A stretch of DNA of 59,754 nucleotides, counting the filler, from Asterionella formosa (lineage: Eukaryota), in assembly GCA_002256025.1 (NCBI GenBank). It is 9 parts of 9 records of this genome, joined end to end, with 100 filler letters (N's around TTAATTAATTAA, not from the genome) between each part and the next. Parts side by side here need not be neighbours in the genome. Positions count along the whole stretch, not along the records: positions 1 to 6,564 come from NKIB01012671.1; 8 more parts are not named here. One strand, written 5' to 3'. A program made the translations under genes and the position numbers. This document shows positions 602 through 58,800 of this stretch, one piece after another (position 1 is the first letter of the stretch; every line of letters starts with the position of its first letter). The notes under the pieces are model-generated. The model searched no databases. It was given only the letters and a program-made list of their open reading frames with translations, and was not told where the DNA came from.

Positions 602-1234
602 ATGAGCGACACGGTTAGCCAAACAACGACACCAACAGCTATTAACAGCGCTCGGTTATCAGTCCCAGCAAAAGGTCGGCTGTCGCGAGAACTTGCTATG
701 CTCCAGAAAGATCCACCACCGGGCATCGCAGCCTTTCTAGAACAAGATGATATGTCGCTATGGAGAGCTGAAATAATTGGACCTGAGCCCTTTGAAAATG
801 CTGTATTTACTGTACGAGTTCAAATCCCACCTCGGTACCCCTTCGAACCGCCCTTGTGTCAATTTGTTGGCAAGATGATTCCATATCATCCCAACATTGA
901 TTCATCTGGTCGTATTTGCTTAGATACACTCAAAATTCAGCCATTCGGTAGCTGGTCCCCAGCAGTGTCACTACCTTCTTTGCTACTGTCTCTCAGGTCA
1001 TTACTGGCTGACCCAAACCCCGACGATGGACTCGTAGCGGAAATATCCAGCCAATATAAGACAAACCCTGATGAATGGAAAGCAGAAGCCAAGAGAAGAA
1101 CCAAAGTCATAAATAAAGAGATGATCAATGTTAGTCACAAAAGACTCACCGAGCAAGAGAGCGTTTCCAGTGACCATGAAAATAACAATCATAATTTCAA
1201 GCGACGAAAGCTATCTCCGGAAGTTGGACTCTGA
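602..1234 (+). CDS. UBE2T: Ubiquitin-conjugating enzyme E2, UBE2T-like
   Basis: UBC motifs RLSRELAML, YPFEPP, HPNID..GRICLDTL (catalytic Cys), LLADPNPDDGL; W-S-P motif typical of the E2T group; C-terminal basic NLS-like KRRKL. Confidence 0.85.
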   Translation: MSDTVSQTTTPTAINSARLSVPAKGRLSRELAMLQKDPPPGIAAFLEQDDMSLWRAEIIGPEPFENAVFTVRVQIPPRYPFEPPLCQFVGKMIPYHPNIDSSGRICLDTLKIQPFGSWSPAVSLPSLLLSLRSLLADPNPDDGLVAEISSQYKTNPDEWKAEAKRRTKVINKEMINVSHKRLTEQESVSSDHENNNHNFKRRKLSPEVGL

Positions 1235-1961
1235 TCACAACCCAAAATCCCAAGTTTCGTATATTCAACTAGCTATTCATTTCGATTTAGTATCATGTTG
1301 TTGCCTGATGTTTATAATTTATACTAAGAACGACAGAATTATGTGTTTCAACTTTATTCCTCTTCAACTCTGACTCGTAGCAGTGACGAAAAGGGAGAAC
1401 AACCCATTTAGTCCAATACTTTCACGCACTTCCGATGATATTAGCAGGTCTCAATACACATGATAGAACATGTTTGGGAAGAGTCAAAAGTGCCATTTTC
1501 TCCAGCAGAGTCAAATATCATACTACAGTCTCTCAATAACCGGTATGCACATGGGTTCCTCCCGAAGACCTTGTCGCTACTCTCAAGGCTCGGTAGGGTC
1601 GTCGGAAATAGTATCCATCTCGGATTTTTTCTCAAGTTATTACTCCGGCGTCTTTCTACAAAGAAATGAAACTAACTCCTTGTAACCATCACAATTTGCA
1701 GCTGAAATAGTCAACTCTGGTTATCTATTAGAGGGTCACTGGCCGTAGCACGTGAGATAATTGTACTGGGTGTCATTTTATGTTACAAATGTCACATGGA
1801 AATCGGCCATACTATTGGTATCGACGTCAGTTTCCGACATGAGCATCGGTTTCCTCCCTGCCAATACGAGAAACTAGTTAAGCTTAGCTCAACAAAAATG
1901 ATGGACTAACCGTCTATGTACACAGCCATAGTGCAATCTTAAAAAAAATTGTTGAAACCAA

Positions 1962-4900
1962 CTATTCCTTGTACATTTGGCCAGCAGTACTGTCAATAAT
2001 CTTGACAGCATTACTCACATCAAGGGTGGATTGGACTAATGTGCTTCGCAAGGTGTCTAATCCAGAGCGTATTGAGCGAGATTTGTCTCTTTGATTTTTC
2101 GACGCCAAATACATGGCCGAGATCAAATCACCATCATCGACGAGTCGCAAGAGTGCTTGTGCGATTTCCATCTTGGACTTTTCGTTTGTCATTTCGTCAA
2201 TGGTGCCTTCGTCACGACTCTCACCTTCTTCTGAGTTGGAGTCGATTTCGTCAGCCAGAACCATTGATGTAAAATCTTGCAACCCCTTCAGCTTTTCAAA
2301 AGCGAGTAATTCCAAATTCAATTGGACCAACGACCAGTCCTTGACATCCGATTCATCTCCAATCACTTCCGATACTGAGATTTTGCATGGTCCACAGCAG
2401 AGGAAATCTCCCTTACCCATCCGAACAAATAGCAGCACCAATACGTCATTGTTTATCCCTCCCTGGAGCTTCGTGGCTAGCTCCGAGGTTCCCCTATTCC
2501 ATTCATGATCTCTCATAAACCAAGTCATGGATTTGCCATTATCAATCCATTCATTCGGATATCCACGAGCACGTCCGTTGCTCGATTTGGTTGGCATATT
2601 GACGAACAAGACAACTCCGTCACGAAATTCTACATAGCCAGCTCGCTGATGAAATTCAAGCATAGCCCCATCTGGGACATTCTTGTTGTCTTTTACTACC
2701 ATTTCCAAGCACTTGTCTTTTGACTTACGGAGTCGAAGGCCAACGATACTGTCAAGATGCGTCTTATTGCCTCCGATACTGATCAATCCGACGGGGACAC
2801 GAAGTATCCCCTGGACGTCTCTATAGGGACCATGACCCTCGTCCGATGGCACAGATGGTAACTCTGGACCATCCATACCAGTCGCCCAGGATTGAGTGAC
2901 TACATATGGGTCACCAACGATTCGTTTCGCTTTCAATTTTCTGATCACCATTGGATCATTGGAGTCCAAAAACATGAATCGCAGCGAAACAACGGATTTT
3001 GAGAATGCACTATCGTCGGCCCATCGTCCAATTTGAAACTTGTGGGGAAACCATGACACATCTGCGAGTTTCATAGCTTTTTCGAACAAATGAGGTGAAA
3101 TCGCGGCATCCAAACTGCTATACTCAAGTTGTGCATTTGTCAGTGGTCGCATGGACCAATCAGATACTTGTTGTTCCTTACTGATCGGCTTTTTTACGAG
3201 GAATTCTGTCAGGCTAGCCAAAGACCCAGCCAGTTGACGCGAATTTCGTATCTTGGCTAGTTGCATGGACTTGCGGGCAAGCAGAGAAACATCTAGGACA
3301 CTATGAAAAACTCGAAAGGACGAAACGTGCGGGTAGCTTCCTGCGAGAAGTCGCAAATCGGCTTTGAGTTGAAAGCCAATCTTGAGCAATTGCTTCGACA
3401 GGAACAGTTTTGTCAAACTATCAGACACTGCAATCTCTAACAGGTTCATTTCTTCCAAAGGTGCAAGAAGCGGCCGCAGCAAATTTTGCAAATCTAAAAG
3501 GAAAACTTTTTGAAGTGGCTGAATACTAATTTGCAATAACAGGACTGGATGCGGTTCCGATGGAGATGCCATAAAGGAGGGTTTCCACTCGCAATCAATA
3601 CCAACCATGGCAACATTCTTTAATCCCGGAACTGAATTTTCATCATCGCCATTGATAGGTTCCAGTGGAAGCGATTGTAGAATTTCTTCCAGACCAGCAG
3701 TAAACTCACTCACAGTCTCGATGCTGTCCACCAAAACGATAGCATCCTCCTTTGGAAAAATATCAGACAATTTGAGAAAGTCTTGAGCTGAGCCAACAGG
3801 CAATGTAGATGGAATCTCTGCGGATATATGCATTCTTCTCAACTCTGTACTACTCGATGCATGTTTGGTACGCTCTAACTTGATGATTGGGATGGGCTGT
3901 GATTTCTCTGGACGAAAGCCAACTTCATCCAATATTGTAAAGTTAATCAGGACAACATCAAAGCTCCGTTTGTTCATCCAATTGCCCAATGAATCTCGAT
4001 TTCCAACATTTGTCATACCTTCTACAATCAATAATTGACCTGGTTTGAACCGTTTCATTGCTGTTGACCCTTCCTCGTCCCCCATGGTTTGGCACATCGT
4101 TTTGCCGGCGATGAGCTGCACTGCCATGTCGTTACCATCTATGGCACTTCGCCAAGGCAAATCGTACTGGTCTAGCATGGAGTTTCCACTTCCGCTGTAA
4201 TTGGGGGGAGCAAAGTCTATGAAGCAGAGTCGCTGTGACATTCGACGGACACCAGAGATCCGTCCAACCAATGTGACTGGAATGGGCTGGAGTGGATTGG
4301 GAAATCCTTGGGAATAACATGCCTGTGCTGTAGTGATAGGAGGTGGCGGATACGGAAAGAATGGCTTATAAAAAGGTTTCCGAGTTTTGAATGATTTCGA
4401 GGATGCTCCTTCGTCGTCGAAAGATATATCCGCAAGATGTACACCTTCCAATGCCAAAAGCATGTCGACTCGTATCCGACACGCCATGTCAGGATGACCG
4501 CCTCCTCCCAGTAGTACAGCTCCATCTTGCATCAAATCTATATCTACAATAGTTCGCAGTACGTTGGGGGAATGTGCAATGGGAGGGACGGATCCAGGTG
4601 GAAACCCACAAAGTGGTTCGACAAGTGCCTCATCTGCCAATGAACACCATGATGCATCCAAAACTTCCTTCAGTTTGGTCATATCCACCTTCTTTTTGGA
4701 ATTCAGAATCACCAAGACGGTTTCATTTTTGTTTTCAACTTGAAAAAGAAGCGAATTTATCTTGGTTACAGCCTCGTATTCCTGCGCTTTCTCGTCCTCT
4801 GAAGGTACGAGTTGAACAGCCTCAAGTCCTTCATATTCAGCCAAGGACATCACGGCAAGTTTGAGCTTTTCAAATGCTCTCCTTCTTTTTTCTGATATTA

Positions 4901-5111
4901 TAGGATCTTCACCAAAGGATAGCGATGAAAGATCCGTCGTTGATTGAAGTATACTCATGCTGTCGTCGTCGAAGGTGGACGATCGGAACAAAATCTGATT
5001 TGTTGTGGAACGATGGTTGAATAATCTTGCTGTGAATCCTTTCGTTCGAGAAATGAGGAATGAAGATATTATTAAAGGTACAATAAGGTACCAACCGACA
5101 AAACAGTTCAT
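1962..5111 (-). CDS. Plastid-targeted multidomain protein: YbaK/ProX-like deacylase + OB-fold + DEDDy 3'-5' exonuclease (MUT-7/EXD3/RNase D-like) + DUF3427-like C-terminal domain
   Basis: Intronless ORF. Probable start is ATG 5111: MNCF..hydrophobic..TKG|FTA, a bipartite presequence. Motifs: YbaK GFPPGSVPPIA and LLGGGG; OB-like VTLVGRISGVRRMSQRLCFIDF...KPGQLLIVEG; ExoI VGIDCEWKP, ExoII KIGFQLKAD, ExoIII SDWSMRPLTNAQLEYSSLDA; C-terminal YPNEW..MTWF..LLFVR..FLCCG. Confidence 0.8.
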   Translation of the reverse strand: MNCFVGWYLIVPLIISSFLISRTKGFTARLFNHRSTTNQILFRSSTFDDDSMSILQSTTDLSSLSFGEDPIISEKRRRAFEKLKLAVMSLAEYEGLEAVQLVPSEDEKAQEYEAVTKINSLLFQVENKNETVLVILNSKKKVDMTKLKEVLDASWCSLADEALVEPLCGFPPGSVPPIAHSPNVLRTIVDIDLMQDGAVLLGGGGHPDMACRIRVDMLLALEGVHLADISFDDEGASSKSFKTRKPFYKPFFPYPPPPITTAQACYSQGFPNPLQPIPVTLVGRISGVRRMSQRLCFIDFAPPNYSGSGNSMLDQYDLPWRSAIDGNDMAVQLIAGKTMCQTMGDEEGSTAMKRFKPGQLLIVEGMTNVGNRDSLGNWMNKRSFDVVLINFTILDEVGFRPEKSQPIPIIKLERTKHASSSTELRRMHISAEIPSTLPVGSAQDFLKLSDIFPKEDAIVLVDSIETVSEFTAGLEEILQSLPLEPINGDDENSVPGLKNVAMVGIDCEWKPSFMASPSEPHPVLLLQISIQPLQKVFLLDLQNLLRPLLAPLEEMNLLEIAVSDSLTKLFLSKQLLKIGFQLKADLRLLAGSYPHVSSFRVFHSVLDVSLLARKSMQLAKIRNSRQLAGSLASLTEFLVKKPISKEQQVSDWSMRPLTNAQLEYSSLDAAISPHLFEKAMKLADVSWFPHKFQIGRWADDSAFSKSVVSLRFMFLDSNDPMVIRKLKAKRIVGDPYVVTQSWATGMDGPELPSVPSDEGHGPYRDVQGILRVPVGLISIGGNKTHLDSIVGLRLRKSKDKCLEMVVKDNKNVPDGAMLEFHQRAGYVEFRDGVVLFVNMPTKSSNGRARGYPNEWIDNGKSMTWFMRDHEWNRGTSELATKLQGGINNDVLVLLFVRMGKGDFLCCGPCKISVSEVIGDESDVKDWSLVQLNLELLAFEKLKGLQDFTSMVLADEIDSNSEEGESRDEGTIDEMTNEKSKMEIAQALLRLVDDGDLISAMYLASKNQRDKSRSIRSGLDTLRSTLVQSTLDVSNAVKIIDSTAGQMYKE

Positions 5112-5738
5112 GGTCTTGGTTTGCACAGGATGAAGTTTGGCAACAGATGGAAACACCTGATGAACAAACAGATTATTTGCCAACGTTTCGTCGCAGCATC
5201 CTTTGACCCTTGTTTGAAGATTACCGGCACCTGGTACCATGGGGTACTATGATTGATATACCGGTAGCTAAAATGCCGGTAAGTAATAAAATCAAAGAAT
5301 GATTGTGCAACAGATTGTACCACGATTTTTGTCCGCGTTGTTATCACTCTCAGCTGTGTGCGCATGTAAAACGTGAATTGTTTCTTCATGCATACCGGCA
5401 TGTTTGATGTACGAAAAAATTTACCGGTGGGTAGACTGACTACCGTATACTACACGGTACGTTGGCACCTGGTGCTGCTTGCTGTATGCATGATACATAC
5501 CGTTACCGGTATTTCTTTGTGAGCGCATCCACCGCGCCTGCCTTATTCTGCCTACCAGTATGTAGACCCGTGATCGAAGATTCCCTAGTTAGTACCAGTC
5601 CCCTTGTACTTGATTGTAAGTACATATGTGCATCACTAGGAATGACACACCGGTTCACTGTAAGAGGCATACCAGTATATACAGGTAAATGAGACTCCCG
5701 GTACCAGGTACCAGGTACCCTCGTACCGGGGTACCAGG

Positions 5739-7652: not shown

Positions 7653-8696
7653 GCTACCTCCTGGTACATTCCTACCGTGCAGTCAATGTACATAGTAGGT
7701 AGGGACCAGCAGTGTAGGTACCAGTTACCTGGTAATTGCATAGGGAGGAGGGCAGAATTAATAAAGGCTGAGTCATGGTCCTTTTTACGAACAACATTGA
7801 CCCCAAAGAATAGCAATTGGGACGACATTGTAACTTGCTTGACTCCCGGTAATCATCATAACGACGTGCGTTCTCCCATCAAATGAATGGACTACCGGTA
7901 CCCTGGTATCAGGTACCTGGTACCAGCACCGGTACTGGTAGAAAGCGTGAAAAAGCTACAAGAAATGTTGCACATGCATGATGAGTCATTGTTGTGAACA
8001 AGTACCGGTATCGTGCAACAGCACGCGTTTCGCTCAACCCCGGATAGCGATAGGCACGACTACTACCTGGTACCAGGTACCATACCCTGGTACCACCACG
8101 CACCATGATACTGGTACCTGGTTCCTACAATCGAAGCGTCGATGGCAGCCCATCAAAAATTAAAATTGAACAAGAAATGTACTGCGAGTATAGATATGGT
8201 GGCATATACCGCTATTTAAATGATGAGTTATACCTGCAGGAAGGCTTTCGGTAGCCCTCAACCCCCCATTGGCACGACTTGACAATCCGTATCGACGCGT
8301 CGTTCGGCAATTAATTTGTTTGAAGATGAATGAGAACCGGTATTATTAGGTAAGCACGCACGATATAGCCATGAAACGCAGAAAGGGAGTACGGTACCGG
8401 GGATCATGTTTGACTAGCGCGTCATATCCGTTGGATTCAAGCTTCACCAATCAAAACCTACTATTTCGAATGCCAGCGCACGGCATACAGACACGTCGCC
8501 TCCTTGTTGCCTCACACATTTTTTCTTTCACAAGGAGCAACGAACTTCTCGGAGTGATGCAACTCCGAACGCATGATTTTTTCGAGAACTCTTCACAATT
8601 CCTTTACTTCGCGAAAAAAGCAGCTTACCCCTCCAAACGTCATTAGAGTACACAACAATCATCGCCAGATAGAGATCACATAGAAAAAGAAAAGTG

Positions 8697-9734
8697 ATGA
8701 CAAGAATGAAGCTAGTCCATGGAGCCGTTCTTGCCGTTGTCCTTGCAGCCATTATGGCCGAAGATTCCTATGCCTTCACGAATCCTGTCGGCCGTTACAA
8801 GCAGGGGATTCGACCTAGAACGAACTCGAACGGCGATGCCACAAACGTTCCAATATCCTCTGCAATCAATGTGGATACAAGTCTTGCCATGATGGACCAC
8901 ACCTCAGTTGCAAGTGCCTTTACCTTGGTCTCGCCACTCTTGTCTTTCTCGCTGTCCGTTCCTCCCTCTGCTTCACTCGTGACTACAGCTCCAATTTTAT
9001 TTGATCCAGCTGTGGAAGCGGAATTGCTGAACGACATGGCGCACGTTGCTTTGGACCTTACAACCTTCTTCGGGCCTGTTACAATTGCCATTCGACTTAT
9101 GGCCATTGTCGGACGTCTTCTCGTAATTGGAGCGGACTATATTCCTGATCATGCCATGAACTTTGAAGAGGTCATCTTCCAAGCGGCCATGCTTGTCATC
9201 GCTTCAAGTGCTTTAGTCAGGAGCGTTCATCCGACCTTGTTAGCTACTTCGGCGCAAACCACCTTCAGGGACAGCCGCATCTTCTTAAAGACCTTCTCGC
9301 GAGCCGGCATGACTTGGATGCAATACAAGACCATCGCAGCAGTCGCCTTGGAATGGGTCCAAGTGGAAGGAGAATCAGTTATCATGACTGAAGAAACGAA
9401 TGATACAGATCCACACGACTATTTTTATTTCCTCTACGATGGTACTGCTACTATTCACTCAGACGAGCACTTCTTTGAAGTCAACGCACCTTCACTGCTT
9501 GGCGAGACGCGATTTGCTAGCCAGTTGGATGGAGAAGACATCAAGGAAGATCTTCCCAAGATGACAATTAGGGCGGGTCCACAGGGAGCGACGCTTTTAA
9601 GAATTCAGTCTTCGAAGCTTGCTTACCTAATGGGAAACGACGACAAGCTGGCGAAGTCCATTCGTTCCTTCATCATAAAAGGCATGCAAGAAAAGCTCAC
9701 CACTGCAATGAAACGAAAGGGGGCTTCTGCTTGA
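8697..9734 (+). CDS. Membrane protein with Popeye/cyclic-nucleotide-binding-like domain, probable plastid presequence
   Basis: Signal peptide followed by SYA|FTN. Hydrophobic segments at ~aa120-175, then F..AGMTW.QYK, YFYFLYDG, LLGETRF, TLLRI..KLAYLM (CAP/cNMP-fold-like). Start may be 8697 or 8706. Confidence 0.6.
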   Translation: MTRMKLVHGAVLAVVLAAIMAEDSYAFTNPVGRYKQGIRPRTNSNGDATNVPISSAINVDTSLAMMDHTSVASAFTLVSPLLSFSLSVPPSASLVTTAPILFDPAVEAELLNDMAHVALDLTTFFGPVTIAIRLMAIVGRLLVIGADYIPDHAMNFEEVIFQAAMLVIASSALVRSVHPTLLATSAQTTFRDSRIFLKTFSRAGMTWMQYKTIAAVALEWVQVEGESVIMTEETNDTDPHDYFYFLYDGTATIHSDEHFFEVNAPSLLGETRFASQLDGEDIKEDLPKMTIRAGPQGATLLRIQSSKLAYLMGNDDKLAKSIRSFIIKGMQEKLTTAMKRKGASA

Positions 9735-10614: not shown

Positions 10615-12042
10615 TACCTGGTACCTCGTACCAGGGTACCGGTACCAGGGTATATGTATGCGGGAAATACCCCATTTTAAATATTTAGAGTACTTAAAAT
10701 AAGGAGTGACAACGAGTACATATACTGTTGCACTATAATACAGTAAATAGAGGACCAAGTCTAGGTAGGTATGTCTATGTATAATATACATATAACCGAA
10801 ATGAAGTGAAAACAATCACTGTGTAGCTACATATTGAAAAATAGTGAAAAAAATAATGTAACTACAGTAGTATGAAATCGTGCATCTCTGTAATAATAAT
10901 CTAAATACATACTAGCTTTTTATGACCACCAGTGTGATGATCAGCAGATATCAATTGATTGGCAATCTAATCTGTGGCACTGTTCTATCTAGAATATATA
11001 CCTCATACATTTTGTCAATTTGCAATGTGGCAGTGAAAAGAATGCAGCTCAAAGTAGGGCAGTCATCATACTAGCCCACACAACGCTTTGCCAAGCAACA
11101 ATACTCATCTATCCTGCACAACCCTTGTAACATTTTTAGCCACCTTACAAACCTAGTTCCAACTTTGCATTCCTACCAAAGAACAAATAGTTTTTGGTGT
11201 AACAGAAAGACTACAATACTGACAGAATTGCTTCCTCCCTCCTACCTCTTTGATGCACATCCTGTATCATTTCTGTTGGTTCATCAACTTGTTAACTGTT
11301 GAAAACTTCTTTCTGGACTCTCCATCATCATTCTGCATACTTGTCACTCCTTCTACCACCAATAATACTGGAGTCAGAAGTCAAAACTCCTCCTGTACTA
11401 AGATGAGAGTCGATTGGCTGATGTCATCCACCTTACTTTCAAACCTAGGCGACATTGCATCTTGATCTGCTGGGAGTACAACCCAAGTATATAGTTCCAA
11501 AAGCAAACTGGCAGCTCTGACTTCCCTCCTTCACCTGTTGTTGGTGTCCCATCACTCACACCTTCCTCTCCTTACCTGCAGGTAAGAAGTAGTCTACCGC
11601 TGCTGCATACCGAGTACCAGTTGGTACCTGGTACCAATGGTACCTGGGTTTAATTCTGTGTACGACCGGTACTGGTACCGTGGTACCTACCAGTAGAGTG
11701 TAATACCGGTAGCTAATATGTACTCGTACAGTGTATATTCCTACGATGATCGTGCGTACAGTTATGGTTTAATTAAACCAAAAAATTAAACCCGCAGTGA
11801 AAGTGGGTTTAATTTTTCAATATCTACATACTGCTACAACACGGTCCGGTCCTTCCACTTGTATTTTCAGATCAATACCGTGCCAGTATAAAATGACCGA
11901 GTAGACACATGATAGCAGAGGCCAACAGGAAAATACAACTTGGGTTTAATTTTACCAATTATGGTAGTGTATGTACATCTAGACTACCGGTACATATACC
12001 TTAACTACATACCGGTATTTCTAGACGCCGGTATTCTAGATA

Positions 12043-12200
12043 CTGGGAGCGCTCTGATAATAAAAAATAATTATATCATGTGTGTATTATAACACAAATT
12101 ATTTTGGGATTTGATACATAATAACGTCGTTGCACTCTGATAATCAAGATATTTTAGATTATTGATCTGACATCAACTGTAAATTTAACTTTAATTTATA
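12043..12200 (+). mobile_element. Terminus of TA-flanked TIR element (CTGGGCGCGCTCTGATA family)
   Basis: TA|CTGGGAGCGCTCTGATAA... matches both ends of the element at 35404-36662. Confidence 0.75.
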
Positions 12201-13023
12201 ACACTTAGTCATAGCGATGCATACTCTTCAGCAAGCAATATGCCTCCTCTTGTTCATTATTTTGAGATATTTCCATCCAAATTCATGCAATTCATCGTTT
12301 TCATTCGATACATTGACATGTCGAAGCAACTGCAAAGGCTTCATTTTGAATAAAATGGGTAATGTAATAAAGCTTAACAATATTTCTGAGCGAAATGGTC
12401 TCACAATTTACTAGTATTCTCTAGAGGATCATTGCAAATGAGAAGCATACAAAGGAAAGAAATACCAAAGATCGAATATCATGACTATGACAACGAAGAA
12501 AAGGAACATCCTGTGAACCAATAATATCGATCTCGATACACAAGCGTTAAGCTTGTCTGATGCTGACTTGCTGCAAGGCGAAGGAGAGATTGCAAAGTCG
12601 CCTACTTCTAACAACATCACAATACTGACCCAGCAGGACACGGAAAATACGTCTTGACAAGCAATAGTATATCGCTTTGTCTACTCAAAAATGGAAGGTA
12701 ACAGTTGACACATGAGCCATCCACTGGATCTGCTAGTTTCATTGAAGAAATTTGTTTAAAAAACTTCAAGAAATGACTGAGTTCACATGCAGCTACTTGA
12801 TACATTCCCGAGATGCCACAGCGTGACATTAATCGCCATTTCAATTTGTAGAAGTGTCATGTGTGGATGCGTCAACATTTTTAGGAGGTGCGAGAGTCTG
12901 GTTGTTGAATTGAATCCCGCCTCTTTTGCCAAATATTATTTTTGTTTTATTGGTCATTTCGTGAGATTCTATGAAGGCATGGCACCTATGTTTGCTAAGC
13001 CAAGAAAGCTTCCATTGGTCAGC

Positions 13024-13117
13024 AAAACCATTATATTTCCATGATGCATCATAGGATTATGATCATCTGATCATAATTTTCGTTATATCATCTAATAATT
13101 TTGATAAATGCCCTCGT
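13024..13117 (+). repeat. ~95-bp palindrome-rich repeat, near-identical to 59382-59477
   Basis: Direct sequence match; contains ATGATGCATCAT and TTATGATCA-tc-TGATCATAA. Confidence 0.8.
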
Positions 13118-13762
13118 AATTTAAATATTAACCCTTTTGACTATGGAAATTTAATTATTATATGTATTGTTTCTTTTAGGTTCCTTTATTTAAATTTCTT
13201 GGTAGGATAATGTACCAGTTAGAGTNNNNNNNNNNNNNNNNNNNNNNNNNNNNNNNNNNNNNNNNNNNNTTAATTAATTAANNNNNNNNNNNNNNNNNNN
13301 NNNNNNNNNNNNNNNNNNNNNNNNNTACCAAAGAAATGGGAAGTCGCCGATGGCGCTTTTTTCGTGTAACTATTACATGAGCAACTCAGAACAATGGTGA
13401 TAAGAACAGATTTGACACTTTCACAGTATGCAACACTCTACACTACAATAATCTGTAGTTCAAAGCAAATTTTGTTTGATTCTATATTTAAATATTATCA
13501 ATTAATAGTCCATGAAAATTTCAAAACGTCTCTTTTGCTTATAATTACTTATCTAGTTGGTCACTACATGCGACTATAACTTGCTGACAACGACTAGAAA
13601 TTACTGATTGGTGAACCATGCAAAAGCAAACCGTCTTCCAGGTGCTGAATACCATCACCATTGCTAGTATTAGGTTACTTGATTTCGATGATCAGAACAC
13701 GACTTGGATTTAATGAATGATAATTTAACATTATAGAAAGTCACTTCAGAGAGTTTGGAATG

Positions 13763-14104
13763 GAAAGCCAGCCTGTCTCGTCCTGTAGGCATGGGACAAG
13801 TCATTGGGAGTGAGTCGAAACTGAATAAGTGCGCATAAAATGTGCGCTACCGGGTCTTCCTTAACGAAATATTGGTGTTACTAAAAATAAATATTTTATG
13901 TTGTGCTTAATACATGTACCAAGTAGCAAAGTGTCGTTCTCATTTTTCATGGAGATGCTCGTTATTTTCTTCATGGTCAAGGCTGCGGTAACAGCATGAT
14001 GCAGGATTCTGTAGTGTTTCAGCCATATATAGAAACAAATCACAACATCTAGGTAAAAAAATTATACTAGCGCCTACAAGGGCTACGGTGCTTACTTCGG
14101 GTAC
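13763..14104 (+). repeat. Repeat family A: terminus of one copy directly followed by the 5' part of the next copy (interrupted by Gypsy)
   Basis: 13861-14104 aligns with 37050-37330 and with the reverse complement of 52945-53116. Confidence 0.7.
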
Positions 14105-14310
14105 ATTGTGAAGTAACTAGCTAGAAGTTGTAGGATTTGTTGAATATATGAGCTTATTAGTTAATCCTTGTGAACAACTCGTTCTCCTAGGATGACAGCC
14201 AAGAATTCAATAGGTGTTAGTCGAGTTCTTTTCTCTTGATAGAGTTCTGATATAGTCTATGTAATCCTAACCCTTTAAGTGTATATGTAGTTGAGCGGGA
14301 TCGCTCACTC

Positions 14311-17300
14311 TCTCACACTTAGGGAAAAACGTTCATCTATGAAAAGGTTTGATGGCTGTGACAAATTTTAATTTGTTTAGTGATATGCATAGTTCGTTAA
14401 AAATTGACTGTGCCATTGGTATGCACTTGAATAATAGTGTAAGGATCGCGCTACAATCATCCAAGGTAGTTGGATTATCCAATAGGATTATAATCTCGTT
14501 GCAAACTTTGTTATCATAAGGCCTTCGATGGAAATTAGCTTGTCGAGGTTTTTCGTCAATTATCACTTGCCGACGGTGATGTATTAATTGTAAATCTGTA
14601 ATAAAAGAAAAATTTAAAATCATGTCACATAGGAAAACCAATGCTCCTGGTGAAATACGCAATGTACTATGAATAGTATCTCGAGTTGCATATGATGCAG
14701 CTGCAAAACATGTATCCACAATATTCTGAGCTTGAAAATCATTAATGGGAGGATGAGCTTTCAACATGCATACTATCCAGTAGAGGTTCACAAATAGCAT
14801 TAGCTTGTGGATTCTTGACTATAGTAGTGACATCTTTAATTCCATTCAACACTAACGGGTGAAGGAAAGAAATACCAGTAAATTCACCTCCATTGTCATG
14901 TATACAAAGTTTGGACGGGTTACCGGGCGGGTTAACCAATCATTTTCGAATTCCAATGCAACTTATTCTGATATATTATTGTTGATACGTGAAATTTTTG
15001 CTAATTTGGTGACGGTGTCAATACAAGTTAGAGTACGAAATTCAATTGCTTGTGCAGCCACTGATATCTTCCATGGACCAATGAAATCCACGGCTAATTC
15101 TGACTATGGTAATAAAAATGCATTCCTAAGGCTGATGTCCACCATAACCAGTACCAGGTAATTGTGTACGGTGACAAGCTTCACATGTGCTTACAGTATG
15201 TTCCACTCGTGCTTTTAATGTGGAGTGAAAAAAATGCGTAGAAACTGTACCGCTTAATCTTGTCATACCCACAGCCATGAGCTGACATCATCTGATGATA
15301 CCAATTAATAATAAGAAAAAACAGTGAAGCAGGGATAGCAATACGCTAAGTGTCCCCTGGATTCTTCACAAAACATATTAAATGTATGTCATGAAAATTG
15401 ATAGAGGGAAAATTTAAAGGATGAATTTGTTGATTGAGAATCAATTTTATATCCAGCAATTGTCTATCATGTATTAAATTATAATCCAATGGATAGTATA
15501 AAACTTTTGCCTAACACCAGATGATTGAGAAAGCAGGTAAGCACGTTCACCATCTAAATCAATTGAGAAAGTGGAAATGGATGTTGAAACTGAAGCTGAA
15601 GATTTCGGCCCAAGATCATCCCCCATCAAAGTCTCAAGCCGCTGGAAGCGAGAAATGGNNNNNNNNNNNNNNNNNNNNNNNNNNNNNNNNNNNNNNNNNN
15701 NNNNNNNNNNNNNNNNNNNNNNNNNNNNNNNNNNNNNNNNNNNNNNNNNNNNNNNNNNNNNNNNNNNNNNNNNNNNNNNNNNNNNNNNNNNNNNNNNNNN
15801 NNNNNNNNNNNNNNNNNNNNNNNNNNNNNNNNNNNNNNNNNNNNNNNNNNNNNNNNNNNNNNNNNNNNNNNNNNNNNNNNNNNNNNNNNNNNNNNNNNNN
15901 NNNNNNNNNNNNNNNNNNNNNNNNNNNNNNNNNNNNNNNNNNNNNNNNNNNNNNNNNNNNNNNNNNNNNNNNNNNNNNNNNNNNNNNNNNNNNNNNNNNN
16001 NNNNNNNNNNNNNNNNNNNNNNNNNNNNNNNNNNNNNNNNNNNNNNNNNNNNNNNNNNNNNNNNNNNNNNNNNNNNNNNNNNNNNNNNNNNNNNNNNNNN
16101 NNNNNNNNNNNNNNNNNNNNNNNNNNNNNNNNNNNNNNNNNNNNNNNNNNNNNNNNNNNNNNNNNNNNNNNNNNNNNNNNNNNNNNNNNNNNNNNNNNNN
16201 NNNNNNNNNNNNNNNNNNNNNNNNNNNNNNNNNNNNNNNNNNNNNNNNNNNNNNNNNNNNNNNNNNNNNNNNNNNNNNNNNNNNNNNNNNNNNNNNNNNN
16301 NNNNNNNNNNNNNNNNNNNNNNNNNNNNNNNNNNNNNNNNNNNNNNCGCAAGGTTTCAGACCAGTAGAAGTTAGCCGATATCCTAACCAATCTGTTTCCT
16401 GGACTACCCATTCACACTTGATCGGATTAACTGTGAAAACATTTGCTTGTAAACGAGTTAAAATAGTATCTAAAGAATGCATGTGATCCTGAAAATTCAT
16501 GGGAAAACAAGAACCCACATCGTCGATATAAATGTCGACGTCATCTTCATCACTAAGAACCTGTTCCATGGTTTCTTGATCAATATCAGACGATTGTTTC
16601 GCCCCCATAGGGAGACGTAAATATTTATATAAATCAAACGTTATAAACCAAACGGAGTGGAAATAGCACATACATTTTGACTCTCCAAATCTAATGCAAA
16701 AATATAGTATTGCATAGACACATCAAATTTTGTGAAAAATGCTTCATAGCCAGCATGGTACTATTTAGTGAGGATTGTTTGTATTCGAGGTAAAGGATAA
16801 ATATTGCAATTGATAACCTTGTTTAATTCACGAAAATCTGACACCCATCTGACATTACCATGCTTTTTGGGAACAATGAATCTAGGAGATGCCCATTTAG
16901 ATGCACCACATTTCTGTAGGACTCAAATATCACATAACCGCTGTTACTCGGTTCTCAAGAATTTTAAATGAATATGAGCGACTGGATACTATTCACGTTG
17001 GTGATGGGGAATAGCGTCTGATAATTATTCCAAATGCACCTGTAATTTGCCGTCAATTAGTGTTTGATATTTAGACAATATAGTGTGGAGAAATGACCGT
17101 TGAACTGCTGTCAAATGAAATTGTTTAGCCATCATTGCATTAATATTCACATGATTATATTTAGCAGCTTGAATTTTCAGCGCATATGATGATTCCACAA
17201 TAGGTGCATCAAAATATAGTAGTACATCACATAATGTTCTCCGTCATCAAAAAATGTGAGAGGATGCATTGGAACAATCATATCAATACAAGAAATGGTA

Positions 17301-17500
17301 ATATTCAACAAATCAGTTGTTAAACCAACTTGACAAAAGAAATCACGTCCTAAAATAGCATCAAATGTGCATACGCCATTGAAAACTTTGCATTATTGGT
17401 GTAAAATACGAGCAGACTGATTAAATTTGGGAAGAATTGATCATAGAAAATAATACTGACGTGAGATGAATAAGTACCAGCTATGGTATATATTAATTGA
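14311..17500 (-). pseudogene. Gypsy pol pseudogene (protease - RT - RNase H - integrase)
   Basis: DAILGRDF (protease, ~17340-17365); YLRLPMG..YIDDV..NPIKCEW..WLGY (RT, 16350-16670); HDNGGEF..KNPQANAICE (integrase). Many frameshifts; internal N gap at 15659-16346. Confidence 0.85.
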
Positions 17501-17515
17501 GAAGTCTTCTTGTTA

Positions 17516-17582
17516 GGGGAGTGGCTTCTTAGTGGTTAGCACACCTCATGAGGTGGCGGGTTAGATTCCTGCAATCTCCACC
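17516..17582 (+). pseudogene. tRNA-Ala-like pseudogene / tRNA-derived SINE head
   Basis: GGGGAGT...AATCTCC-A-CC acceptor stem with G3:U70; A box TGGCTTCTTAGTGG; T arm GCGGG-TTAGATT-CCTGC (B box); AGGTG variable loop; anticodon arm partly deleted. Confidence 0.6.
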
Positions 17583-18250
17583 TGTCGTTCTTGTATGTAG
17601 TCCCTGGGGTTCCAGGGGTGTGGCTGACAAGGAAACAGGTCCTGGTACGTGTCAATTTAAGTTGGTACAAGTGCAATTATTGAATAGCTTTAACGTGCTA
17701 TAAAATATAATTGACATTTATTCTATCACTACTCAAGAGTAGTAGATACTTTGCCTTTTTGTGTTGCATACTGTGAAAGCACATGCAGCAATGCCCATTG
17801 ACAAAATTTTCCATTTATCCGGGTTCATTGTTAAAGCGAAAACTTGTTTTGCTAGTTTCCCCGAGTTTTTTGATGAGACCTGTCAATAACACCATAGAGT
17901 AATTTTTAAGACTAGTAGTACATAGTAATCATCTGTCAACATTGACTGATACCCCTAAAAATCAGTTTACATGAAAAAGCTTCTAGTGACTCTCAAACAA
18001 CCATGCCTGGCGGTAACTTTTAAGATCATTACGGATCTAAAAAAACCTTTAGAGGCAACAGGCCTGCTATTCGGATTCATTGGAGACTTTGTACGAATGC
18101 TACAGTAAATGGCTGAGTTTGCCTATACAAAAATAGGGACACTATAGTGGGACCAGAATTTACTAGCTTCATCGCGTATTTTTCATGAATCATGGTATAC
18201 AACCTAACCCTATAAGTCTATATGTAGTTGAGTGGAATTGCTCACATGGT

Positions 18251-55859: not shown

Positions 55860-58800
55860 CCTTGATATACCCCTACTCTCCATCCGCGTTCACCAACGCC
55901 ATGGATCTGGGTGCACCTTCATTGCTGACTCCTCTGGCTGCTACCTCCATTTTCCTACTTTTGCCCTTCCGGTTGATGACTCCTCTGATTGTCTCCTTCC
56001 TTTTCCCCTGCCCCATTAGCTAGCCTCCTCTTTTTCCTTTGATGATACCTTGTCCCCATCGGTTCTAGTCCTTTCCGATCCCCCTCCATTGCTCGGTTTG
56101 CACTCAAACGTGCAGCCATTCACCACCACACCTGGCCTGTCCATCGGGTTGTTCCTCCTTCACACCCCGCCTCGGACCCCTCCCTTCTCCGGCTCCCCTC
56201 CTCTGAATCATCCAAGATTATCCTGCCCCTGGATCCTTCTGCTGTCCCTGCCCCTGCAATTATGGCTTGTGAACGCCCTGAGTCTTTTGGTGCCCAGGTT
56301 CGCCGTTTTTCCTCCCATGATCTCCACAAATATTTTGGCAACCCAAATTTCGTAATTTTTCCATCGTTACCATGATAGTGGCCGATGGCATTCGCCTGTC
56401 GGAACATTTCGAGCCTCCCATCTTGGTTGGCGATGTTTGTCAACATGAAGCGTGGTCCCTCTGGCTTGCCCCTCCCTCGCCCTTCCTCCATCCTCCAGCG
56501 TGTTGGTGTTGATATTGGCTATGGTGAGGATGGCATCAGCCCTGGTGGTTACCGCTACTGCCTTCTCCTGGTTGACCACCAATTCAGTCGCAAGACCTGG
56601 TGTTATGGCCTTAAGGACCTCACTAGCTCCTCTATCTCTGATGCATTCTGGCGATTTTTTGTTGATACAGGCAGTTTTCCCCGTGTCTTCCAATGTGCCT
56701 TTGATCAAAAGGTTCTTGGGGGGCCCACCAATAAGCTGCTCCTGTCGAAGGGTATCCGTGTCAATGCTGCTCCCCCTTACCGTCAATCTCAGAATGGTTT
56801 GGTTGAATCCCACTGGTGTGTTGCCACCTCCATGGCTCGCTCAATCCTTGCTGAGGCCAGTCTCCCCAAACGCTTCTGGTTCTGGGCTGTCCGTGAGGCT
56901 ACCCTTCGGATTAATATGGTCCCCGGCCTCCTTGGGTCTTCCAAGACCTACACCACTCCATTCGAACTCTTCTATGGGATGAAACCGGACCTTCATACCC
57001 TCTTCCCCTTTGGCTGCATTGGTTACTATAGGCGTCCTCGCGATGGCCTTCGGGGTGCACGCACTGCTCACTTTGAGAGTCAAAGCTTCACAGGCATTGC
57101 ACTTGGTCGCGCTGACACCGCCAATGGCATGCTGTTTTGGAATCCAACCTTGTCCTGCTTCTGTGTGTCTGCTGATTACACTCTTGATTCCACTCGTGCT
57201 ATTGCAGACCCTTTTCCTACTATTGTGTATGATGGTGGACTCCACCTGCGCCTGTACACCAATCCTACCACCTCTGCATCCGAAGCCTACCCCCTCCTGG
57301 TAGTGTTGTCTCTGTCCGCCTCAATTCGGCTGGTGATGTCTCTGAGGGTATTGTCAATTCTGTTCCCATCTCCCTACATGATTTTTATCTCATTGACCTC
57401 CTTGAGGGGGCATCTCTTTCTGCCGCATTTGGCGACCTTATCTTCCCTGATGAGTCTCTTAATCCTGACTTTTCCCACCTTCCTCGTGATGATTCCAGTG
57501 GGGATCCCCTTGCCCCCCTCCTCCCTCCTTGGATGGTTGTTGGTACCAAACTGATCCTTGCCCTTGATGGTACCTTTTTCCACGGTTCCTTGGATCTTGA
57601 TGATGACCTTGACTGGCTCTTTGTCCGCCGCAATTCTTCTGGCCAAATCATCCACCAGACTAGCTTAGTTGATCTCCCTTACACCTGGCGTCAACGCATC
57701 CATGAAGAGACCCTGTTCACTGGCTGGAACTGTGTTCCCCCCTCCGGACCCCCTGTTGTGCTTCTTGGGAATGGTCAACATGTGTCTGCCTCCTCCCTCC
57801 TTCATAAATGTCCCTCTTCCCTTGACCTCGCCCTCCTCCCCACTTCCCCTGATCGTCTCATATGGCTGGCCTCTTATCAGGAGGAATACGACTCTTTAGT
57901 CGCTCAGGATGCCTTTCATTTAATTGATGCCTCTCCGTTATCACTCCTTGGGTGCGCCGTCATTCCCTCCAAGACTGTTCTTCTCACCATCAAATGTGAT
58001 GAACTTGGTCACCCAGCCCGTGCCAAATCTCGCATGTGGTCCTCGGAAACTTGGAAACCACCTACTGGTCCAAGTCTGACACTTATGCCCCTGTTTTAGG
58101 CCAACTCTCCCTCCACCTCCTGGTCTCCCCCCTTGCCGTTGAGAGCCGCCGCCTTTTGAAACAGGGCGACTGCAAGAACGCCTTTTGCCATCCTGTTCTA
58201 CCCCCAGACGAGATGGTTGTCATTTACCCGCCTAATGGTTGCCCCATTTCCAAGCCTGGTACCTACTGGCGCCTCCATAAAACTCTCTATGGTGTCCGTT
58301 GGAGACTGGTTCACCTGTTTTCGGGACGTTCTCCTGTCCCTGGGCTTATCCCAGTGCCCTCATGAACCCTGCATTTTCTTTGGTTCTCCTATGCCTAGTT
58401 CCCCTTCCCTTTATGTGCGCATGCATATATGTGGACGACTTCGCCTACTTCGCTCTCTGTTAGTGATGAGGTTGAGCAGTGGTTTGAGGCCGCTGTAGCG
58501 GCTCGTCTCCGCATTGACTTCATGGGTCCCATCTCATGGTTTCTTGGTATCTACTTTGCCTGGCACCCCAACGCCTCCACTGGTCACCTCAGTGTTCATT
58601 TATCCCAGGAGGCTTCCCTTCGCAATCTCCTTGACCTGTTTGATATGGTGGATTGTCGCCATGCCCCTACCCCTTATCGCTCTGGCCTGGTCTATGACCG
58701 AATTGTATCTGATGGTGCTGAACTTTCTCCCAAAGCTCGCGCGTTCATTATTACACAATACCAGTCACTCATTGGGGCTCTCAATTGGCTGGCTGTCAGC

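Follow-up and report, generated by a model that had tools for sequence, protein, structure and literature searches.

Among the described DEDDy 3'-5' exonucleases, Nibbler is an enzyme that trims RNA 3' ends, and MUT-7 carries a Mut7-C domain behind its exonuclease domain. The class IIb aminoacyl-tRNA synthetases LysRS, AsnRS and AspRS possess N-terminal anticodon-binding domains of the OB fold, in which an Arg/Phe/Gln trio is common to the class. Free-standing trans-editing proteins of the INS superfamily, such as YbaK, ProXp-ala and ProX (1wdv, 2cx5, 1dbu), are single-domain proteins, and the same domain is otherwise known as a part of ProRS. The available parts of PMC10164551 and PMC11286415 describe a highly conserved lysine, which positions A76, together with a GXXXP loop; they term this lysine strictly or nearly universally conserved across the superfamily, report that its replacement by alanine dramatically impairs deacylation in all INS members tested, and name only aminoacyl-tRNA acceptor ends as ligands. 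Modified bases in DNA are the targets of a further module: in the accessible portion of PMC6765204, DUF3427 is the target-recognition domain of SauUSI, which restricts DNA containing 5-methylcytosine (5mC) and 5-hydroxymethylcytosine (5hmC), and DUF3427 fusions bind 5mC or 5hmC DNA. Sequence relatives or predicted structural counterparts of all these systems come together in one gene of Asterionella formosa, located in a 59,754-nucleotide stretch of assembly GCA_002256025.1 (the window, nine parts of nine records joined with filler) within its first part, NKIB01012671.1. The coding sequence (1962..5111, minus strand) specifies 1049 amino acids plus a stop codon, and its ATG opens directly on a signal peptide (protein P0001).

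The explanation favoured here, with a probability of roughly 0.45, is a nucleus-encoded, plastid-imported 3'-to-5' exonuclease that acts on tRNA in 3'-end trimming, turnover or surveillance. Candidate modules for the acceptor end, the anticodon, the 3' terminus and a modified base are joined in one conserved, expressed protein. No paper on this architecture was found in the full-text literature, a search that left subscription journals and the book chapter classifying the INS proteins outside its reach, and within that literature the impression of an earlier sequence-only reading, which knew of no characterised protein with this architecture, holds. Each domain comes from a known family; the combination, the lysine-less state of the YbaK domain and the DUF3427-like reader in a eukaryotic organellar protein are new. 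Plastid tRNA quality control and turnover are almost unexplored in algae with complex plastids. If its substrate is tRNA, the protein would be a testable candidate for organellar tRNA surveillance and would possibly contain the first SRA-like domain that reads RNA.

The exonuclease and the modules that point to tRNA

The DEDDy exonuclease domain spans residues 497-688 (3048..3623, minus strand) and contains GIDCEW (D506, E508), D585 and Y664-x3-D668. Pfam DNA_pol_A_exo1 (PF01612) matched residues 497-678 with an E-value of 1.8e-14 and 54.3 bits against a cut-off of 23.6, and D506, E508, D585, Y664 and D668 (EYSSLD) were invariant in all 30 aligned homologs. These results bear out the intact exonuclease that the sequence-only reading had recognised from GIDCEW near 3590 and YSSLD near 3110, and judging from its motifs the enzyme is almost certainly active. 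The closest solved relatives by sequence were Nibbler and 'mut-7 homolog' entries (E-value 9e-7 with the single sequence, 1.6e-14 with a profile), and further profile matches among the PDB sequences comprised WRN, diDNase, EXD2, NrnC, RNase D and Rrp6. The DEDDy motifs are intact and aligned with those of the MUT-7/Nibbler/WRN/RNase D group (7jw2, 7jw6, 2fbt, 1yt3). In the alignment with Nibbler 7jw2, the Asp of motif II and both motif III residues, Tyr and Asp, coincide with identical residues; at motif I, where the protein has D-C-E, the crystal sequence has A-S-E, so that the Glu aligns and the Asp stands opposite Ala. Unlike the members of that group, the A. formosa protein has YbaK, OB and SRA-like modules as partners, and Pfam searches revealed no Mut7-C (at E<=1), HRDC or helicase domain. 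The protein is not a MUT-7 ortholog by this composition, and the label 'Exonuclease mut-7' of its Seminavis relatives reflects the exonuclease domain only. A preference for RNA or DNA is not readable from the exonuclease sequence matches, and the module is neutral in this respect. In PADLOC the sole match was a weak one to BrxHI, located on motif III of the exonuclease, and the C-terminal part of the protein had no match; a whole-protein Atlas search gave a weak match (0.75) to an exonuclease cluster.

The YbaK/INS-like domain occupies residues 76-233 (4413..4886, minus strand), as delimited by Pfam, NCBIfam, a ProX alignment and a domain hidden Markov model (HMM). Pfam tRNA_edit (PF04073) matched residues 116-219 (E-value 1.1e-15, 58.2 bits against a cut-off of 25.5; window ~4455-4766), which lies inside the range of ~4780-4430 that had been proposed for a YbaK module, and 29 of the 30 aligned homologs matched PF04073 as well. 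NCBIfam produced weak matches to the YbaK_EbsC model and to ProRS, and the solved relatives retrieved by a PDB sequence search were the ProX-type proteins 1wdv and 2cx5. The domain has the Gly-rich strand and the GXXXP-type loop of the free-standing INS proteins, with G173-S-V-P-P177 standing opposite GGVPP of both 1wdv and 2cx5, and G169, P176 and G203-G205 were invariant in the 30-homolog alignment. In contrast to the INS proteins, the domain shares its polypeptide with a presequence and three further nucleic-acid modules, and the position of the catalytic lysine is occupied by asparagine, a replacement that the sequence-only reading had overlooked: 'iNSLlF' aligns with 'vKSLvF' of 2cx5, which identifies the position as Asn119 (codon 4755-4757). 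Asn119 and Ser120 were at least 90% conserved among the 30 homologs.

The state of this position was surveyed in the stored relatives by alignment to the domain HMM, in a set that includes the window's own copies and some near-duplicates. Proteins with the YbaK-OB-exonuclease-SRA architecture carried Asn in 69 cases, Lys in 10, and Asp, Glu and a gap in one case each (n=82). Ankyrin-type paralogs carried Lys in 19 of 22 cases, the other three being gaps, and the forms without the SRA module had Lys in 11 and Asn in 10 (n=35), the SRA-less forms of Tetraselmis and Euglena being among those that retain Lys. The retention of Lys in the ankyrin-type paralogs indicates that the ancestral module was probably an active tRNA-end enzyme. 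A FastTree phylogeny of the exonuclease domain, used descriptively (112 rows, midpoint root, near-duplicates and rows without a YbaK state dropped), showed that the most basal OB-type branches include Lys-bearing forms and that Lys and Asn alternate within the OB type. One OB-type subclade was variable at the position in both the tree and the census (Q, E, R, D, T, Y). Judged by sequence, the YbaK module is an INS member by descent and is not one that can be filed as a canonical active deacylase; our reading is that it would be a working domain of YbaK descent, independent of the canonical lysine. The conserved replacement of Lys by Asn can serve as a natural experiment on the role of a YbaK fold that has ceased to be a canonical deacylase.

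The nucleic-acid-binding-type OB fold was assigned to residues 250-396 (3924..4364, minus strand) from a structural model, fold searches and invariant columns. An AlphaFold model of residues 240-445, built with 38 homologs, reached a predicted local distance difference test (pLDDT) score of 85.8 and contained five strands at residues 278-394 (window 3930-4280). Foldseek retrieved 58 PDB chains at E<=1e-3, the best being human LysRS 4dpg_B (1.1e-4, probability 1.00), and the matches listed include LysRS entries, one AsnRS (2xgt) and one PolC (3f2b). VIA-align against 48,161 chains placed the OB domain of PolC on top (Z 9.3, root-mean-square deviation (rmsd) 2.5, 93 residues); the N-terminal anticodon-binding domain of a non-discriminating AspRS scored Z 8.4 and AsnRS and LysRS Z 7.3-7.7, with MCM, RPA and telomere OB folds interspersed at Z 7-8 and 129 chains in total at Z>=5. 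The identity of the fold, as modelled, is certain. The sequence-only reading had seen an OB-fold-like segment at ~4285-3925 that resembled the anticodon-binding domain of Asp/Lys/Asn-tRNA synthetases; its position and fold agree with the model and both fold searches, and the part that failed is the profile match, since Pfam tRNA_anti-codon (PF01336) matched none of 30 family members at E<=5. A phmmer search of the OB segment against PDB sequences yielded chance-level rows only (e.g. gonadotropin, PlsX).

Three residues of the OB fold, R289, F297 and Q332, were invariant in 30 of 30 aligned homologs, and in the wider set of stored relatives with an SRA module they were conserved in 86, 89 and 90 of 94 proteins, respectively. 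The trio is also present in the Tetraselmis and Euglena forms. When the whole-protein profile was compared by hhalign with the N-domains of E. coli AspRS, AsnRS and LysRS, a single match was obtained, which covers strands 1-2 and pairs R289 with AspRS R28 and F297 with F35; it is a weak match (probability 1.3%, E-value 0.04, 26 columns). Q332 lies in the middle of strand 3 ('AVQLI', compared with 'IVQVF' of AspRS). The spacing of eight residues between R289 and F297 is the same as that between R136 and F144 of human LysRS, and in the available part of the human LysRS source F144 stacks on U35/U36 and is stabilised by R136, Q155 and E195. The predicted domain has the fold of the class IIb N-domains and an Arg-x7-Phe...Gln trio in what are probably the equivalent strands; it differs from them by a loop of ~25 residues with the invariant W320 between strands 2 and 3, by the lack of a PF01336 match and by the absence of a synthetase catalytic domain after it. 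The trio, with its relation to U35, would strengthen the link of the protein to tRNA.

The SRA/DUF3427-like module and the protein family

The C-terminal SRA-like/DUF3427-like module comprises residues 777-958 (2238..2783, minus strand; model residues 93-274). A model of residues 685-960, built with 47 relatives, had a pLDDT of 89.1 and a predicted template modelling score (pTM) of 0.85. Conserved motifs of the module are YPNEW, LTWF.R..EW and LFVR...F.CCG.C, and its invariant residues are K798, R823, G825, N853, W864, W871, F895, R897, C906 and G907. The best of the 48,161 chains in VIA-align was SauUSI residues 803-953 (Z 9.8, rmsd 2.7, 117 residues), and 14 further chains at Z>=5 included SUVH5 (8.5), SUVH6, KRYPTONITE, AbaSI, ScoMcrA, 12dl_BA, TagI, AspBHI, NP95, SUVH9, PvuRts1I, MspJI and LpnPI (6.1). 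All 15 chains are of the SRA type, except that 12dl_BA is unnamed in the output, and the first unrelated fold was PilZ at Z 4.6. Foldseek of the C-terminal model gave nothing at E<=1e-3; its best match had an E-value of 2.5e-3, with the same family on top and a probability of 0.99-1.00 for the SUVH5 SRA domain. A language-model search with model residues 93-272, whose neighbours are a lead and not an alignment, returned bacterial DUF3427 clusters first (0.95, 204 of 256 features); 16 of the 30 matches fell in the DUF3427-only set, and the rest carried AspBHI_N, SRA_ScoMcrA or SRA, some plus DUF3427. The SRA-like assignment is founded on VIA-align, the consistency of its match list and the language-model features. 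No match to Pfam DUF3427 (PF11907) or SRA was found at E<=5 in 30 family members, nor at E<=1 when the protein itself was searched, and neither NCBIfam nor the phmmer and profile searches of PDB sequences matched the OB or the C-terminal module, the PDB rows being exonuclease and YbaK/ProX chains. The DUF3427-like module that had been proposed at ~2640-2290 thus stands in its position, fold and language-model neighbours and lacks the Pfam match. The sequence-only reading had also missed the meaning of this module, which by its predicted fold would be an SRA-like reader of modified bases. It has its best structural match in the SauUSI target-recognition domain and its nearest language-model clusters among the SRA-like restriction readers and their DUF3427 relatives, and it differs from them by its eukaryotic origin and by its attachment to an exonuclease and not to a PLD, HNH or PD-(D/E)XK endonuclease or a helicase.

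The exonuclease and the SRA-like domain are separated by a small, conserved beta-rich subdomain (residues 700-776; 2784..3014, minus strand), with strands of high pLDDT at model residues 24-31, 52-59 and 86-89. Almost no structural match in VIA-align spans it, and by domain HMM it is present in the OB-type family and unmatched in the ankyrin-type paralogs.

A homolog search among 1.84 billion representatives yielded 1,337 proteins at E<=1e-3 and 120 at E<=1e-30. Architectures were assigned by applying domain HMMs, derived from the 30-sequence alignment, to every stored protein. At least three architectural variants were distinguished in this way, among diatoms, the green alga Tetraselmis and the euglenid Euglena. 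The first, YbaK-OB-exonuclease-beta-SRA with or without a C-terminal tail, is that of the present gene and has its named members in Seminavis robusta. The second, YbaK-ankyrin-exonuclease-SRA-like (for example P0128, P0137 and P0159/P0200), has Fragilaria crotonensis KAI2513555.1 as its named member; it has the YbaK, exonuclease and SRA-like modules in common with the present gene and differs in carrying ankyrin repeats in place of the OB fold, in having no match to the beta subdomain and in its retained lysine. Pfam detected ankyrin repeats in 16 of 26 remote relatives scanned. The third, YbaK-(ankyrin)-OB-exonuclease without SRA, occurs in Tetraselmis striata and Euglena gracilis; many other rows without SRA are fragments. 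An OB-type subclade that ends after the beta subdomain and has no SRA module (P0086, P0087, P0091, P0096, P0098, P0099, P0103-P0105, P0111) was also observed, with K, Q, E, R, D, T or Y at the lysine position; some of its members may be truncated predictions. YbaK and exonuclease were fused in every lineage sampled (Seminavis, Fragilaria, Tetraselmis, Euglena), all of which bear plastids. Among 185,579 prokaryotic species genomes, one for each species, a scan seeded by two short patterns found no YbaK-exonuclease fusion; at all 16 loci that it retrieved the match was confined to query residues 553-688, in the C-terminal part of the exonuclease. The public labels of family members are automatic and read 'Exonuclease mut-7', '3'-5' exonuclease' or 'prolyl-tRNA editing enzyme YbaK/EbsC'.

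Candidate substrates of the fused exonuclease

Two modules point to tRNA, namely the domain of YbaK descent and the OB fold with its trio, one points to modified DNA and the exonuclease is neutral. The SRA-less older forms already unite YbaK, OB and exonuclease, and for this reason a tRNA-directed 3' exonuclease is favoured. In the mechanism, which we infer at every step, the OB domain would grip the anticodon loop through the class IIb-type Arg/Phe/Gln trio and would favour tRNAs with U35. The YbaK-like domain would then dock the acceptor CCA end, aminoacylated or not; with Asn at the lysine position it would probably be a sensor or holder of the 3' end, or a weak or altered deacylase, and not a canonical editing enzyme. 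The intact DEDDy domain would take off the 3' nucleotides, and the SRA/DUF3427-like domain, presumably a later addition, would inspect a flipped-out and probably modified base, and the outcome would permit or veto trimming. The ligand of the SRA-like domain, as far as its modelled fold allows a judgement, may be RNA. A more specific version of this mechanism, which is speculative and unlikely to hold in full, is that an SRA/DUF3427-type base-flipping reader, a kind not known so far to act on anything but DNA, was recruited in diatom plastids to read a modified tRNA base, or one whose modification is missing, and so to gate the fused exonuclease, with the OB domain selecting U35 tRNAs and the Lys-less YbaK domain sensing the charging of the CCA end. 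If so, an SRA domain that reads tRNA bases would make the protein a single-polypeptide surveillance machine for tRNA modification, with the first RNA-directed SRA-like reader.

Several observations weigh against a tRNA substrate. Asparagine replaces the defining lysine and the Gly of the GXXXP loop is replaced by K, Q, L or M in several members of the family, P176 being invariant; because of these changes the YbaK module, the sole one that points only to tRNA, may have changed its job. The fold of the OB module does not by itself specify tRNA, because PolC is level with the synthetase N-domains in the comparison of the model and RPA, MCM and telomere OB folds score similarly; in addition, the module escapes the tRNA_anti-codon profile. 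The hhalign support for the trio is statistically weak, and the equivalence of the Gln is taken from its position in strand 3 only. The DNA exonuclease WRN is among the sequence relatives of the DEDDy domain, and every listed structural relative of the C-terminal module with a named substrate reads modified bases in double-stranded DNA. Finally, the plastid localisation is inferred from a motif count of our own making.

Because the listed SRA-like relatives act on DNA, a DNA-directed function has to be considered, and a plastid DNA exonuclease guided by base modification, unlikely as we judge it to be, survives best among the alternatives. Here, the SRA-like domain would locate cytosines, modified or unmodified, in DNA of plastid or foreign origin, single-stranded DNA would be held by the OB fold and 3' ends would be resected by the DEDDy domain. 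Such an enzyme could contribute to copy control or maintenance of the plastid genome, to the selective breakdown of plastid DNA or to defence, and the YbaK domain would be a relic with a regulatory or structural role. This function agrees with the 15 best structural neighbours of the C-terminal module, all of them SRA-type and the 14 named ones acting on modified DNA, with the next fold, an unrelated one, at Z 4.6. It also agrees with the module's nearest language-model clusters (bacterial DUF3427, AspBHI_N and SRA_ScoMcrA), the role of DUF3427 as the 5mC/5hmC target-recognition domain of SauUSI in the accessible portion of PMC6765204, the PolC OB domain at the head of the VIA-align list, the WRN relative and the loss of the catalytic lysine. 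However, YbaK and exonuclease are fused in all lineages, including the SRA-less Tetraselmis and Euglena forms, and since these keep both the lysine and the OB trio the older core of the family looks tRNA-directed. The YbaK domain is also strongly conserved and not decaying, as its invariant Gly and Pro residues and the conserved Asn119 indicate, and the Arg/Phe/Gln trio is an anticodon-binding signature of class IIb. We know of no modified cytosines in diatom plastid DNA, a point on which the literature was not searched. If the substrate is DNA nevertheless, the protein would be a eukaryotic, organelle-targeted relative of the bacterial modification-dependent nucleases.

It is rather improbable that the protein is a plastid exonuclease for the trimming or decay of other RNA 3' ends, such as those of rRNA, mRNA or small RNAs, which would act like Nibbler/MUT-7 or RNase D and use its extra modules as general RNA-binding accessories. 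The closest solved exonucleases are Nibbler and 'mut-7 homolog' entries, with RNase D, Rrp6 and NrnC also listed, diatom homologs bear the name 'Exonuclease mut-7' in public records, and RNA readers, YTH for example, exist among the PUA-like folds to which SRA is related; YTHDF2 stood at rank 48 of the Foldseek list for the C-terminal model. Such a function, however, leaves the fused and conserved YbaK/INS domain and the OB fold with the class IIb trio unexplained, and the Mut7-C and HRDC domains are lacking from the Pfam results. Least probable is the scheme of the sequence-only reading taken literally, in which the protein is a genuine trans-editing deacylase of mischarged aminoacyl-tRNA in the plastid and goes on to trim or degrade the tRNA that it has deacylated: the set and order of the domains match, a GXXXP-type loop is present, Lys-bearing paralogs and basal members exist and a deacylase ahead of a 3' exonuclease would be mechanistically sensible because the aminoacyl group blocks the 3' end, but the near-universal lysine needed in all INS members tested is Asn119 here and Asn in 69 of 82 relatives of the same type, which makes the deacylation step doubtful.

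Transcript, presequence and surroundings of the gene

The gene for the proposed tRNA exonuclease is part of a single uninterrupted open reading frame (ORF) on the minus strand at window 1962..5240, which encodes 1092 amino acids when counted from its first ATG. The frame remains open 5' of 5111 up to an in-frame ATG at 5238-5240. ATG 5111 is likely the start codon, because homolog N-termini that contain the hydrophobic stretch begin on it without a leader in the alignment and because it has A at -3. A start at ATG 5240, which has C at -3 and lies 14 nucleotides from the 5' end of the RNA-library contig, is less likely; it would place the signal peptide 43 residues into the protein, unlike in the homologs. 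The 5' leader (window 5197-5240, minus strand) also has an ATG at 5199 that is out of frame, and the reading frame of 9 codons which it opens precedes the likely start codon at 5111.

A transcript contig from polyA RNA-Seq run X1 covers 1719..5254 (minus strand) with a 3' untranslated region of ~243 nucleotides. The contig is 3,536 nucleotides long, colinear with the window with 0 mismatches and 0 gaps and assembled at a word depth of 114; it spans all modules and ends at both gene ends, with the neighbours not entered. Pieces of the gene were also present in three other RNA runs. Such contigs carry no strand information and RNA libraries can contain DNA; with that proviso, one colinear contig favours a single intron-less mRNA over two separate genes, in agreement with the one-polypeptide fusion of the sequence-only reading. 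A candidate intron at 3802-4462 was seen in a low-depth contig of run X2, which skips 659 nucleotides. It is probably an assembly artefact, because only 26 letters support one side of the junction and its ends are non-canonical (AT..GC). A variant of the gene that is 95-99% identical, with dozens of single-base differences, was observed over window 1754-5232 in run X7, a freshwater metatranscriptome; it diverges from the window upstream of 5232 and probably comes from a close relative or strain.

A bipartite presequence was assigned to residues 1-47 (4971..5111, minus strand) from its sequence and its recurrence in homologs. The N-terminus reads MNCFVGWYLIVPLIISSFLISRTKG|FTARLFNHRSTTNQ, a hydrophobic signal peptide ending in ...SRTKG|F with G|F at residues 25/26, and through to DDD it reads MNCFVGWYLIVPLIISSFLISRTKG|FTARLFNHRSTTNQILFRSSTF, in which the stretch after the Phe is Ser/Thr/Arg-rich and basic and contains no acidic residues. 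This pattern of a signal peptide, a Phe and, behind it, a hydroxylated basic stretch characterises stromal proteins in diatom-type complex plastids. Its recurrence was counted with a home-made rule and not a trained predictor, in a set that includes near-duplicates: homologs of the same architecture were required to have a Met start and at least 45 residues ahead of the YbaK domain, a hydrophobic start was defined as an 11-residue window with a Kyte-Doolittle mean of at least 2.0, and the motif was a small residue with a Phe behind it, located in the 18 residues after that window. By this heuristic, a hydrophobic start was present in 36 of the 51 homologs of the same type whose N-terminus is complete, and 24 of these 36 had the small residue-Phe motif, compared with 19% of 1,860 random internal 18-mers. 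The P0003 group has Leu in place of the Phe. Among the ankyrin-type paralogs, a hydrophobic start was found in 7 of 19 with a complete N-terminus, and in 5 of these 7 the small residue-Phe motif came soon after. The bipartite presequence with TKG|FT that had been proposed for the protein is supported by its hydrophobic start, its G|F and this recurrence, and the protein is probably plastid-targeted. At the opposite end of the protein, a C-terminal tail (residues 985-1043; 1983..2159, minus strand) lies outside both structure models and was found only in a subset of the family.

A convergent neighbour at window 602-1234 on the plus strand is a 210-amino-acid ORF with a ubiquitin-conjugating enzyme domain (UQ_con, E-value 2e-36), which fits a nuclear eukaryotic context. 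A 346-amino-acid ORF with a GTG start at 8694-9734 (plus strand) had no Pfam match at E<=1e-3 and may be part of a spliced gene or spurious. Rfam gave 0 matches over the whole window, and no tandem repeat was found in its 54-59.7 kb region. Two segments stand out in composition: window 12001-18000 is an outlier with a GC content of 0.30-0.34, and window 56001-58000 has a GC content of 0.525 with an AT skew of -0.32 and a GC skew of -0.23.

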